From IMG/VR virus record IMGVR_UViG_2713896778_000030: a stretch of 4,253 bases of DNA. One strand, 5' to 3'. A program made the position numbers and the translations under genes. Within the stretch, counting starts at the first letter, position 1; every line of letters begins with the position of its first letter. The DNA is from a virus (taxonomy: Duplodnaviria; Heunggongvirae; Uroviricota; Caudoviricetes). A model generated the notes under the pieces. That model saw only the letters and a program-made list of their open reading frames with translations. It made no database searches and was not told the origin of the DNA. Below are positions 1,351 through 4,253 of this stretch, piece by piece.

Positions 1351-1380
1351 TTGACTCAATGGTTTATTAAACACTAAACT
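1351..1380 (+). promoter_or_regulatory. Rightward PR-like promoter for the cro-like operon
   Basis: -35 TTGACT (1351-1356), an 18-nt spacer, and -10 TAAACT (1375-1380). The hexamers are the same as in the leftward promoter at 336-363. The -10 lies inside the operator-like site at 1362-1379. Confidence 0.45.
1362..1379. promoter_or_regulatory. Operator candidate (OR, PR-proximal): GTTTAtT-aaac-ACTAAAC
   Basis: 7-bp arms with one mismatch around spacer AAAC; same spacer and arm consensus as the site at 337-354. Confidence 0.5.
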
Positions 1381-1408: not shown

Positions 1409-1711
1409 ATGACATTAAAAGAGTTTATTAAATCATTAAGGGTTGGTGATGCTAAGAAATTCGCGGCCAGACTTGGTGTATCGCCATCTTACTTATCGCA
1501 AATGGCGTCTGGACGAACAGCTATATCTCCAACCCGCGCCCTTATGATCGAATCTGCGACGGAAGGCCAAGTAAGTAGGGCGGAGCTACGACCTCATGAT
1601 TGGGAGCTTATTTGGCCTGAGTATGCGAGCGGCATTCGTTTGGGGCAAACACATGTAGTTCATGCTGAAGGTGATTGTAGTGCATGCTTATCTGATGGAG
1701 TTGATTCATGA
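1409..1711 (+). CDS. Cro/YdaS-like HTH DNA-binding protein, 100 aa
   Basis: ATG 1409 preceded by AGGAAGG (1401-1407). HTH segment AKKFAARLGVSPSYLSQMASGRTAISPTRALMIESAT resembles the YdaS/Cro family. It is divergent from the repressor gene. The stop TGA 1709-1711 overlaps the next ATG (ATGA). Confidence 0.65.
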   Translation: MTLKEFIKSLRVGDAKKFAARLGVSPSYLSQMASGRTAISPTRALMIESATEGQVSRAELRPHDWELIWPEYASGIRLGQTHVVHAEGDCSACLSDGVDS

Positions 1712-2220: not shown

Positions 2221-3183
2221 ATGAGCAGCAAGCTTCATGGTCTTGTCTGGGAAGGGTGCGCCTTCACCGGCATGATCTTATCCAGGGTGGCGGTTATGGC
2301 CCGTCTTGCAGACTACAGCAATGACGAGGGCGTGTCATGGCCTGCCATTGAAACTATCCGGCGTCAGATCGGTGCAAGAAGTGAATCCACAGTGAAATCG
2401 GCTATTGCAGAACTGGCGAAAGAGGGCTGGCTGACGAAGGAAGAGCGTAAGGTCGGTGGGCGTAATGTAAGCAATATCTATCGGCTTAATGTGGAAAAAC
2501 TCGAAGCAGCTGCGGCGGCGGCGCGTGAGTCATATAAACCGAAAAGAAAAATTAGCCCGGCAAAAAATGACCCGTTAACAGTTGACCCGTCAAATATTGA
2601 CCCCTCAACGGTTGACCCGTCAAATTTTGATGGATCAACTGTTGATAAAAAACTGCCGATTAGGGGGGCGATGATTGACCCCGATCCGTCAGTATTAAAA
2701 CCTGATCCGTCAGATAAAAGATCTTCTTGTCCGGACGCTTCGCAACCGGACCCGCAGACGGCTGAACAGGATTTTTTAACCCGACACCCTGACGCGGTTG
2801 TGTTCAGTGCGAAAAAACGCCAGTGGGGAAGTCAGGAAGATTTGGTGTGCGCACAGTGGATCTGGGGACGAATCGTGAGTCTTTACGAGCAGGCGGCCAG
2901 CGATGATGGCGAGATCACTAGACCGAAAGAACCCAACTGGACAGCATGGGCCAATGACGTTCGCACAATGCGGATGCTGGATGGCAGAACTCACAGACAA
3001 ATTTGTGAAATGTTTGGGCGTCTCCAGCGGGATTCGTTCTGGGTAAAAAACATCATGAGTCCGGCAAAACTCCGGGAAAAATGGGATGAACTGGTTATCC
3101 GCCTGGGGCGTTCGCCTGCGCAGCGTTGCGTGAATCACATTTCTGAACCGGACACTGAAATACCGCCGGGCTTCAGGGGGTAA
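2221..3183 (+). CDS. Phage replication initiator (O-like), 320 aa
   Basis: ORF 2206-3183 in the supplied track opens at GTG; the preferred start is ATG 2221, 4 nt after GGGGG. The N-terminal region (LSRVAVMARLADYSNDEGVSWPAIETIRRQIGARSESTVKSAIAELAKEGWL) looks like the winged-helix N-domain of phage replication initiators. A central linker has tandem peptide repeats DPLTVDPSNIDPSTVDPSNFDGSTVD encoded by iteron-like DNA repeats. The C-terminal domain is not recognised specifically. Confidence 0.65.
   Translation: MSSKLHGLVWEGCAFTGMILSRVAVMARLADYSNDEGVSWPAIETIRRQIGARSESTVKSAIAELAKEGWLTKEERKVGGRNVSNIYRLNVEKLEAAAAAARESYKPKRKISPAKNDPLTVDPSNIDPSTVDPSNFDGSTVDKKLPIRGAMIDPDPSVLKPDPSDKRSSCPDASQPDPQTAEQDFLTRHPDAVVFSAKKRQWGSQEDLVCAQWIWGRIVSLYEQAASDDGEITRPKEPNWTAWANDVRTMRMLDGRTHRQICEMFGRLQRDSFWVKNIMSPAKLREKWDELVIRLGRSPAQRCVNHISEPDTEIPPGFRG
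2566..2655. repeat. Candidate replication origin: tandem 15-bp iteron-like repeats inside the initiator gene
   Basis: Head-to-tail 15-bp units: aatgacccgttaaca (2566-2580), gttgacccgtcaaat (2581-2595), attgacccctcaacg (2596-2610), gttgacccgtcaaat (2611-2625, identical to unit 2), tttgatggatcaact (2626-2640), then an A-rich unit gttgataaaaaactg (2641-2655). The core TTGAC-CC-GTCAA has inverted-repeat arms. Related copies (tgaccccgatccgtcag, cctgatccgtcag) lie at 2676-2713. Confidence 0.55.
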
Positions 3184-3224
3184 GTGTTAATTTCTGGTCA
3201 TGAGGTAATTTTCAGGAGGGCTTG

Positions 3225-3274
3225 NNNNNNNNNNNNNNNNNNNNNNNNNNNNNNNNNNNNNNNNNNNNNNNNNN
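3225..3274. other. Gap (50 N) removing the 5' end of the following gene
   Basis: AGGAGG (3214-3219) lies 5 nt before the N run, and an open reading frame resumes at the first base after it (3275). No duplicated flank is visible here. Confidence 0.7.
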
Positions 3275-3553
3275 GAGCTGGTTGCCAGTGGCGATGTATA
3301 CAACTCTGGTTACGGGTTATTCCCGTCTGAACAGGCTCGTAAGGACTGGCAAAATGCCCGCAAAAAACTATCTAGGGCAAAGGTGAAGAAACCATCTGTG
3401 GTTGATCCGGATCTTATCTGGTCATTACCAGACGGAGAAATACGCCGCTACGACAGGCGTCTGAACATAATCTGTAGCGAGTGCCGGAAGAGCGAAGCTA
3501 TGCAGCGTGTACTGGCTTTCTATCAGGGTAATTTTCAGAAGGTGCTGTTGTGA
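3275..3553 (+). CDS. Ren-like protein, 3' fragment (start codon inside the N run)
   Basis: Open frame from 3275 to TGA 3551-3553 encoding ELVASGDVYNSGYGLFPSEQARKDWQNARKKLSRAKVKKPSVVDPDLIWSLPDGEIRRYDRRLNIICSECRKSEAMQRVLAFYQGNFQKVLL. The C-terminal motif N-L-[VI]-x-[KS]-E-C-R-x-S-x-A-M-x-R-V-L-A-x-Y matches my recollection of the lambda Ren C-terminus (NLVFKECRQSAAMKRVLAVY). It sits directly downstream of the replication gene, as ren does in lambda. This rests on memory, not a search. Confidence 0.45.
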   Translation, partial: ELVASGDVYNSGYGLFPSEQARKDWQNARKKLSRAKVKKPSVVDPDLIWSLPDGEIRRYDRRLNIICSECRKSEAMQRVLAFYQGNFQKVLL

Positions 3554-3658
3554 GCCAAATTAACAATCGGAACTTCGTGAAGAGAAAGCATAATCCAAAT
3601 CTGAATAATTAAGTTCAGCACTGTAAATAAAATTTAATCCTTAACTGGAGGTATATTT

Positions 3659-3871
3659 ATGTTAAATACACAGAAAGCCATTAATGCGGAAAAATATAAC
3701 GAGTGGGCAAGAAAATTCTCTGAGCAGATTTTTAAAATTACTGGCGATGAGAATGCGGCAAAAAATGAATTAGAACCGTGGACGCCTGAAGGAGCCGACC
3801 CAAATTATTGCTGGAGGGAGGTTGATCCAGTTGATGCTGCAAATGAAGCTATGAGTTATCACAACGATTAA
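3659..3871 (+). CDS. Small acidic hypothetical protein, 70 aa
   Basis: ATG 3659 preceded by TGGAGG (3646-3651) with a 7-nt spacer; TAA 3869-3871. Protein MLNTQKAINAEKYNEWARKFSEQIFKITGDENAAKNELEPWTPEGADPNYCWREVDPVDAANEAMSYHND has 14 D/E against 7 K/R, with an acidic C-terminal half. The gene is visibly more AT-rich than the replication genes. No family recognised. Confidence 0.5.
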   Translation: MLNTQKAINAEKYNEWARKFSEQIFKITGDENAAKNELEPWTPEGADPNYCWREVDPVDAANEAMSYHND

Positions 3872-3881
3872 TGTCAGGAGG

Positions 3882-3897
3882 CCGCCCGAAAGGGCGG
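3882..3897. other. GC stem-loop CCGCCC-GAAA-GGGCGG
   Basis: Perfect 6-bp G/C stem with a GAAA tetraloop, 11 nt after the stop of the 70-aa gene. There is no U tract on either strand, so it is not a canonical intrinsic terminator; it may be an RNA stability or processing hairpin. Confidence 0.45.
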
Positions 3898-3983
3898 TAA
3901 TGAATGGTCACATTATTTAGAAAAAATATCCGCGAAAGAGTAGAACAACAGAATTTCTGTTTCTCATTCTGTTTATCGTGTTG

Positions 3984-4121
3984 ATGATACCGATATCCCC
4001 GTTAATCCTAGTCTGGATAATCGGAAAAATAATTGAGCCAGTTATTGAATTGTATAACGACGTGGTATGGGCGTCATTCAACACACTGCACAATAAAATT
4101 AATCCGTATAAGGAAAACTGA
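3984..4121 (+). CDS. Small hydrophobic protein, 45 aa as written; probably the distal part of a ~73-aa membrane protein broken at an A6 tract
   Basis: ATG 3984 to TGA 4119-4121 encodes MIPISPLILVWIIGKIIEPVIELYNDVVWASFNTLHNKINPYKEN. The frame is open upstream to 3921 (KKYPRKSRTTEFLFLILFIVL...) without a start codon. An ATG at 3904 in the +1 frame reads MVTLFRK into the A run 3921-3926. The stop overlaps the next gene start (TGA-t-ATG). No Shine-Dalgarno precedes 3984. Confidence 0.3.
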   Translation: MIPISPLILVWIIGKIIEPVIELYNDVVWASFNTLHNKINPYKEN

Positions 4122-4122
4122 T

Positions 4123-4253
4123 ATGGCAACTTTGACAAAAAAAGAACGGGCATGGTTGAACGAATTACAGGAAGTTCTTGATCGCTGTCCATCACCGAAA
4201 AAAATTGGCTTTTACACCATTGGCGATAAAAGCATTTACCTGTATGACCTACG
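4123..4253 (+). CDS. Hypothetical protein, 5' fragment (continues beyond the window)
   Basis: ATG 4123 with AGGA (4111-4114) 8 nt upstream; open to the window end. Encodes MATLTKKERAWLNELQEVLDRCPSPKKIGFYTIGDKSIYLYDL, which has normal globular-protein composition. Not recognised. Confidence 0.4.
   Translation, partial: MATLTKKERAWLNELQEVLDRCPSPKKIGFYTIGDKSIYLYDL

Follow-up and report, generated by a model that had tools for sequence, protein, structure and literature searches.

The stretch of DNA analysed here (4,253 nt, hereafter the window) covers the immunity, replication and early-right region of a lambdoid prophage of Escherichia coli, and its features are compiled in Table 1. The genes for a ParE toxin, a PaaA2 antitoxin and a repressor-like protein form a minus-strand set (448–1374), which resembles the three-component paaR2-paaA2-parE2 toxin-antitoxin module of O157:H7 prophages. 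This set occupies the place of the cI/rex region of lambda. From the cro-like gene onward, every gene is located on the plus strand, and the series leads over the replication genes into a region of small genes, where an ORF of 70 codons is found between the DUF977 gene, previously read as Ren-like, and a DUF4014 gene. Within the O-like gene, four tandem TTGACCCGTCAA-like 12-mers are located at 2567–2623 with a distance of 15 nt from each other, and these repeats are probably the iterons of a replication origin, comparable to ori of lambda. The window also includes two runs of 50 N (1811–1860 and 3225–3274). The 15 nt preceding the first run (AAGCGTATTTCGAGC) recur directly after it, suggesting that the sequence at this point was masked or joined and is not natural, while the second run conceals the start of the DUF977 gene.

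Table 1. Features of the window, with positions counted from its first nucleotide.
Feature	Position	Strand	Remark
ParE toxin gene (PF05016)	451–822	−	
PaaA2 antitoxin gene (PF21217)	731–973	−	
Repressor-like gene	940–1374	−	
pR-like promoter	1351–1380		TTGACT-18-TAAACT
YdaS/Cro-like gene	1409–1711	+	
YdaT-like gene	between YdaS/Cro-like gene and O-like initiator gene	+	
O-like replication initiator gene	2221–3183	+	
DUF977 ('Ren-like') gene	stop codon TGA at 3551–3553	+	
Non-conserved part of the spacer	3554–3589	+	remnant of the junction between DUF977 module and frame; relatives align only from about 3589–3592
AT-rich conserved frame leader	3590–3651	+	ends in SD sequence TGGAGG (3646–3651); also present in empty frames
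Cassette-specific segment	3652–3873	+	222 nt (7-nt spacer, coding sequence with stop codon, 2 nt); replaced by filler GATTTCTGCACCCTCAGAACA in empty frames
Gene for the 70-aa acidic protein (phrog_4659)	3659–3871	+	stop codon TAA at 3869–3871
AGGAGG	3876–3881	+	proposed SD sequence of the downstream gene; abuts the hairpin on its 5′ side
GC hairpin with GAAA tetraloop	3882–3897	+	3′ element of the frame; no U-tract
DUF4014 gene	3904–4121	+	DUF4014 match with E 3e-15 on the frame 3978–4118

An earlier note on this DNA had described positions 3554–3897 as an AT-rich insert starting behind the stop codon of the Ren-like gene. The turn in base composition at this point is real, as the replication genes exhibit a GC content of 49–52% (O-like gene 51.9%, DUF977 part 49.1%) vs. 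only 30.5% in the following spacer and 39.9% in the 70-codon ORF. The GC content is still low after position 3897, with 35% in the DUF4014 gene and 40% in the next gene. AT-richness is a property of the entire small-gene region and not of an island around the 70-codon ORF. Of the proposed insert, an optional, insert-like part does exist, but it is narrower (the cassette-specific segment of Table 1), and the AT-richness runs on beyond the end that had been assigned to it.

The 70-codon ORF is a genuine gene. A set of 83 loci (the IMG/VR set together with the window, ArgO145 and EDL933) contained 23 distinct alleles, for which a pooled pN/pS of 0.22 was calculated and third codon positions were the most variable ones. 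The length of the ORF was exactly 70 codons in 82 of the 83 loci. It could nevertheless be argued that the ORF is non-functional, either as a decaying remnant or as a chance ORF within a recombination linker: it is dispensable and missing from most copies of its intergenic frame (see below), frameshifted or truncated copies occur (P0108, P0113, P0115–P0119 and L162), and the neighboring DUF4014 gene is itself frameshifted, in the manner of a pseudogene, in the window. Such a lack of function is extremely unlikely, though, given the pN/pS value, the constant length, a core motif which is retained down to 34% identity in other genera and a confident predicted fold.

The encoded protein matches phrog_4659 (PHROGs v4) with an E-value of 3.4e-50 and over the entire profile (residues 1–70 on profile positions 1–70 of 70), and so do all 13 of 13 diverse relatives. 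As this family carries no functional annotation, membership in it is uninformative with regard to a mechanism. An identical protein (WP_000935420.1; UniProt A0A0D6ZST7; 'hypothetical protein') is present in E. coli O157:H7 EDL933 and many Shiga-toxin-producing E. coli (STEC), and also on the DNA level the gene is 100% identical in EDL933 and many further STEC strains. A search of 5.8 billion proteins yielded matches exclusively from Escherichia/Shigella, all with an identity of at least 71% and all labelled as hypothetical. An exhaustive HMMER search with a profile, and another search seeded by a profile, added a few more distant relatives (34–50% identity, 61–93 aa) from Klebsiella, Salmonella and other assemblies, and the residues Y13, W16, F20, T28, E37, L38, W41, P57, A60 and A61 are kept among them. 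The product had been called unrecognised in the earlier note, and it still is: it belongs to no Pfam, NCBIfam or PADLOC family, its PHROG is without function, it is named hypothetical in every source, and no literature on the gene or its neighboring genes was found.

The genes of the distant relatives are always located between replication genes and NinB/NinG/Q. The relative from Klebsiella has a 4-nt overlap with its upstream neighbor and no spacer. A conserved gene partner of the distant relatives was not found; as their neighbors differ in every genus, the gene context offers no guilt-by-association lead. Among complete genomes of E. coli, a match to the ORF is present in 856 of 5,426, with a query coverage of at least 80% in 632 of them. 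Giant proteins with repetitive matches (1,885–3,770 aa, 5–14 matching stretches) were rejected as relatives, and likewise as an indication of a polyvalent-protein repeat module, as each of their stretches reaches only 5.6–10.6 bits. The repetitive giants P0121, P0126 and P0127 obtained E-values from 1e-19 to 1e-6 against the 70-position profile by a summation of 5–14 stretches below 11 bits each; whole-sequence E-values for short profiles are misleading where repeats are summed.

Upstream of the ORF, the intergenic spacer of 105 nt (3554–3658, 30.5% GC) and the Shine-Dalgarno (SD) sequence TGGAGG, followed by the 7-nt spacer TATATTT and the ATG at 3659, were both found as previously described. 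Only the second part of this spacer is conserved. Before about position 3589, the upstream variants of other loci differ in sequence. An ORF of 20 codons at 3550–3612 (VSQINNRNFVKRKHNPNLNN), which overlaps with the stop codon of the DUF977 gene in the motif GTGA, is probably a junction remnant rather than a gene, judging from related loci, in which sequence and frames differ. In contrast to this first part, the AT-rich leader is kept ahead of the ORF across at least five upstream contexts, and a comparison of loci places the begin of conservation about 60 nt before the ATG of the ORF, irrespective of the upstream gene. No significant RNA structure in the leader was detected when compared to shuffled sequences (z −0.42).

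The leader and the hairpin behind the ORF turned out to be parts of a common intergenic frame. Scanning IMG/VR for the exact 19-nt sequence of the hairpin resulted in 125 occurrences. The ORF precedes the hairpin in 33 of these and is absent in the other 92, of which 91 exhibit the same 21-nt filler GATTTCTGCACCCTCAGAACA after the same CCTTAACCGGAGG. The lone exception (L107) is an unrelated terminator-like context, in which the 19-mer is followed by TTTCTTTTGT. An empty frame therefore reads AATCCTTAACCGGAGG-GATTTCTGCACCCTCAGAACA-TCAGGAGG-hairpin and includes the same leader, SD sequence and AGGAGG-hairpin as an occupied one. The extent of the cassette-specific segment was read from an alignment of occupied frames (the window and L001/ArgO145) with empty frames (L090, L093, L097, L091 and L114). 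The empty frame of L090 and the occupied frame of ArgO145 even share both neighbors, namely a zinc-ribbon-like gene of 118 aa upstream and a DUF7167 gene of 60 aa downstream. Four contigs contain one occupied and one empty frame at a distance of 1,064 nt, and ArgO145 has both kinds as well. Across the complete E. coli genomes, the empty frame is present in 2,394 of 5,426 (2,017 with a coverage of at least 80%); leader and hairpin without the ORF thus occur in about three times as many genomes as with it. At the 3′ side of the hairpin, conservation stops exactly, irrespective of which gene is located downstream.

The strong ribosome-binding site and the trailing hairpin had both been assigned to the ORF as its own. 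As the same leader, SD sequence and hairpin are found without the ORF, and indeed more commonly so, they have to be regarded as properties of a reusable element. The ORF is an optional occupant of this reusable intergenic frame. All empty sites having a single filler is compatible with an insertion of the ORF as well as with a deletion of it. To our knowledge, neither the frame nor its dimorphism between occupied and empty has been described so far, with our literature search having covered the gene and its neighbors.

Some further observations were made on the frame. In L003 (vB_EcoS-666R9, 3001–3665), the window spacer 3554–3651 is present after the DUF977 ('LygF') gene, and a 168-aa hypothetical gene and reverse-strand genes are located in the stead of the ORF, which represents a third type of content at this junction. 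In empty frames (e.g., L090, about 3320–3357), CCCTC, located 9 nt downstream of the orphan SD sequence GGAGGG, is able to pair with it, and the resulting 5-bp stem would be a second hairpin right before AGGAGG and the main hairpin. This pairing is kept in a shifted register in the variant L146 (GAGTG...CACTC); the whole empty frame folds with a z of only −1.97. An empty frame of the E. coli type (94% identity, H50) is also present at 11316–11413 of PP818812.1, a phage of 'Actinobacillus pleuropneumoniae' (vB_Apl-pPE4), where it adjoins an Ead/Ea22-like gene. This unexpected host is possibly a misassignment or a contamination.

The hairpin itself has the 6-bp G/C stem and the GAAA tetraloop that had been noticed before (GCCGCC-C/GAAA/G-GGCGG). 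Its six G:C pairs become seven pairs if G3881:U3898 is counted, its dG is −15.5 kcal/mol, and in its context it folds better than 200 of 200 shuffled sequences (z −3.85). Natural variants keep the structure and are compatible with selection for it: where C is replaced by U, a U:G pair results, and a loop of GAGA instead of GAAA is still of the GNRA type. A true compensatory double substitution in the stem was not present among them. Among 81 distinct frame contexts, 67 have TCAGGAG/G flanking the stem. The next start codon could be determined in 62 contexts and lies 6–11 nt past the stem in 61 of them, and the genes starting there belong to at least five unrelated families. An SD-like 4-mer is present in only four of the 62 spacers between stem and start codon. 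In the window, AGGAGG and the ATG at 3904 are separated by 22 nt, of which folding of the 16-nt hairpin would leave 6 nt. This arrangement suggests that AGGAGG and hairpin form a split ribosome-binding site for the following gene. L075 and L083 have a degenerate stem with GAGAGG as its 3′ arm, and in some contexts this arm could therefore itself be an SD sequence.

Other roles of the hairpin were considered as well. An intrinsic terminator was rejected, as a U-tract follows the hairpin in no copy of the frame and no terminator was called; in the window, the hairpin is followed by TAATGAATGG, and the first 8 nt behind the stem include only three T. In a nut site of the lambda type, a boxA (CGCTCTTA-like) precedes a GNRA-like boxB hairpin by a few nt, and the site is located closely behind an early promoter. 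This candidate was rejected too, as no boxA-like 8-mer within one mismatch is present near 3800–3900 and the only matches are at 39 and 1537. The position of the hairpin after the replication genes is also atypical for a nut site. A search of Rfam with the window and the empty frame yielded no family. It is further conceivable that the hairpin is mainly an element of RNA 3′-ends, that is, either a barrier to 3′ exonucleases after processing or a terminator that is weak or depends on a factor, with the proximity of the start codon being incidental. A very stable GNRA-capped stem (see dG and z above), which is located between cistrons and conserved independently of the flanking genes, would fit with this idea, and so would L107, where the 19-mer and its following TTTCTTTTGT look like a true terminator. 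The lack of a U-tract in every frame copy speaks against it, and a start codon at 6–11 nt, an abutting AGGAGG and the absence of any other SD sequence in 58 of 62 spacers would be unexpected for a pure stability element. We therefore consider this explanation unlikely, although a protection of 3′-ends and a split ribosome-binding site are compatible roles and may well not exclude each other.

The gene behind the hairpin in the window, encoding a DUF4014 protein, is frameshifted. At 3921–3926 it contains a run of six A, where intact alleles (72 aa) have seven, and its N-terminal 26 codons are in a different frame than the remaining 47 codons (3978–4121). In EDL933 the gene is annotated as 'frameshifted', too. 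The A6 run may represent either a slippage-prone run or a fixed pseudogene.

With regard to the protein, the net charge of about −7 and its concentration in the C-terminal half were recovered: residues 1–35 have a net charge of +1 and residues 36–70 of −8, at a pI of 4.5. D and E account for 20% of the residues, and for 13–23% across the family. The C-terminal part is acidic in all family members (−3 to −10), while the net charge of the whole protein ranges from −7 to +2, with P0130 exhibiting +2 and the Salmonella-type proteins −2 and −3. AF2 predicts an ordered fold with a long helix (2–28), a short helix (31–38) and a C-terminal helix (57–66), and with an ordered loop that carries the conserved Trp residues. 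Two runs agree on this fold: a shallow alignment gave a pLDDT of 81, and with an alignment of greater diversity the pLDDT was 86.5 (pTM 0.75), all five models of this run reaching 80–86.5. No hydrophobic or membrane segment is present in the 70-aa protein, which is predicted to be soluble and cytoplasmic, with a size of about 8 kDa. Searches of Pfam and NCBIfam gave no match for this protein, and the PADLOC defence models matched neither the ORF nor its three neighbors. A sequence-profile search of the PDB returned chance matches only, and the best hit in the viral structure library BFVD had an E-value of 0.68, with none being significant. Solved structures did not give a significant match to the predicted fold either.

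As a further idea, the protein might mimic region 2 of an ECF sigma factor in a stand-alone form and bind either an anti-sigma partner or, at the clamp helices of beta-prime, RNA polymerase. Such binding would redirect or inhibit host transcription. Yet, Sigma70_r2 was matched by none of the 13 family members at E-values up to 10, and hhalign against region 2 of RpoE gave a probability of 0.5%. We regard this idea as very unlikely.

On the plus strand, no terminator was called before the ORF, except for one weak call inside cro. Consensus scans, which a weak promoter could escape, found no sigma-70-like promoter on this strand in 3300–4253 and, when the whole window was covered, none near the ORF. 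As far as can be judged from the sequence, the ORF is thus a member of the early (pR) operon and not an independently transcribed unit. The suggestion of a moron-like gene stands insofar as the ORF is optional between identical neighbors, but an own promoter and a U-tract terminator are absent by scan. In its full form, this suggestion says that the gene has its own promoter in 3554–3658 and a terminator in the hairpin, and that the prophage expresses from it an anti-restriction or anti-defence DNA mimic or else an exclusion factor. It would be in line with the ORF being optional between isogenic flanks, a region that is AT-rich relative to the replication genes, the acidic C-terminal half in every family member, a protein without known function and a −10-like TAAAAT at 3628–3633, which is conserved in occupied frames but has neither a −35 nor a TG. 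Apart from the result of the promoter scan, it conflicts with a hairpin that lacks a U-tract and has the next start codon only 6 nt later, and with the larger number of genomes that contain leader and hairpin without the ORF. A moron in this sense is rather improbable.

The predicted activities of such a moron fare similarly. An anti-restriction function as a DNA mimic finds no support: D and E make up just a fifth of the residues, and neither PHROG, Pfam, PDB nor BFVD revealed a similarity to any anti-defence protein, Ocr and ArdA included. The varying net charge of the family, being positive in P0130 and only weakly negative in the Salmonella-type proteins, weakens this idea further, and we regard a DNA-mimic role of the protein as quite improbable. 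An exclusion factor is unlikely as well, as there is neither a hydrophobic segment nor any sign of an expression independent of the early operon. The 60-aa DUF7167 protein, which is encoded after the frame in many relatives (L001 4314–4496, corresponding to ArgO145; L090, L100 and others) and is absent from the window, has a net charge of −15 with 20 D/E among its 60 residues. By its composition, it appears to be a better candidate for a DNA mimic than the 70-aa protein.

The explanation we favor, with a probability of roughly 60%, is that the ORF is a dispensable gene of the pR operon of E. coli and Shigella lambdoid prophages which resides in a frame for recombination and split ribosome binding, and that its product binds another protein. 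The frame consists of the AT-rich leader with its SD sequence, either the 222-nt cassette or the 21-nt filler, and AGGAGG together with the GNRA hairpin, and it recurs between many different gene pairs, sometimes twice per phage. With about 60 nt and about 25 nt of shared homology, it would most likely allow a reassortment of genes by recombination, including the 70-codon ORF; this role in recombination is, like the split ribosome-binding site, inferred. For translation of the following gene, the folded hairpin would shorten the distance between AGGAGG and the start codon from 22 nt to about 6 nt, and the hairpin might in addition shield processed mRNA at its 3′-end. The 70-aa protein, in turn, would act stoichiometrically by binding and modulating a host or phage protein early in lytic growth. 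We propose this last part with low confidence. A stoichiometric binder is suggested by the lack of an enzymatic or DNA-binding signature, which is an argument by exclusion, given that no fold or sequence match was significant. That the target belongs to host defence or host takeover is possible but doubtful. A more far-reaching version would see in the frame a dedicated, expression-ready docking site, whose homology arms, SD sequence and split-site hairpin let small genes swap while translation of the next gene stays undisturbed, and in the 70-aa protein an inhibitor with a new fold, directed against host defence or the transcription machinery. There is only a small chance that this version is correct.

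The 70-aa protein is present in about 12–16% of complete E. coli genomes, notably in Shiga-toxin-producing strains with several lambdoid prophages, and the frame in about 40%. As occupied and empty versions exist between identical neighbors, matched natural pairs of knock-out and knock-in are at hand, which makes a functional test straightforward. If the frame is confirmed as a split ribosome-binding site and linker, it would provide a mechanism, on the level of sequence, by which small genes are shuffled with operon expression staying intact. These findings add detail and do not overturn current views: the gene family is already catalogued, and the frame belongs to known kinds, namely the mosaic linkers of lambdoid phages and the split ribosome-binding sites of the T4 type.

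Compared with Ocr, ArdA, Ugi, T7 Gp2 and AcrIIA4, the 70-aa protein is likewise small, soluble, acidic (pI 4.5), phage-encoded and, by prediction, early. Yet there is no similarity to them in sequence or fold, its charge density is modest and its net charge is not conserved, so that the resemblance is to the general class of small acidic phage inhibitors only. Morons have reportedly been described in lambdoid phages. Like them, the ORF is a small optional gene whose flanking genes lie next to each other in related phages, and its composition is unlike that of the upstream genes. It differs from them in lacking, by scan, an own promoter and an intrinsic terminator, in having a composition like its downstream neighbors and in being embedded in the early operon. 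Conserved linker or boundary sequences are part of the modular theory of lambdoid phage evolution and have reportedly been discussed for HK620. The frame resembles them, as it is a short conserved intergenic sequence that flanks exchangeable genes and as the same gene is found with differing neighbors on either side. Its two SD-like motifs, its GNRA hairpin and its dimorphism between occupied and empty set it apart from such linkers.

The closest parallel for the putative role in translation are the split ribosome-binding sites of the T4 genes 38 and 25 (Nivinskas et al., 1999; Malys and Nivinskas, 2009; reviewed in PMC3014915). There, an intervening structure shortens the spacing from 22 to 5 nt (gene 38) and from 27 to 11 nt (gene 25), and enhances initiation (PMC3014915). 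In both systems, the SD sequence is too far from the start codon (22 nt in the window as well as in T4 gene 38), a stable hairpin between the two cuts the gap to 5–6 nt, and the arrangement is conserved among related phages. Unlike in T4, where it belongs to one gene of the T-even phages, the element in the window is portable, being found in front of at least five unrelated downstream genes of temperate lambdoid phages. A few of its copies (4 of 62) have an SD sequence of their own in the spacer. If confirmed, it would extend the mechanism of T4 genes 38 and 25 to temperate phages.
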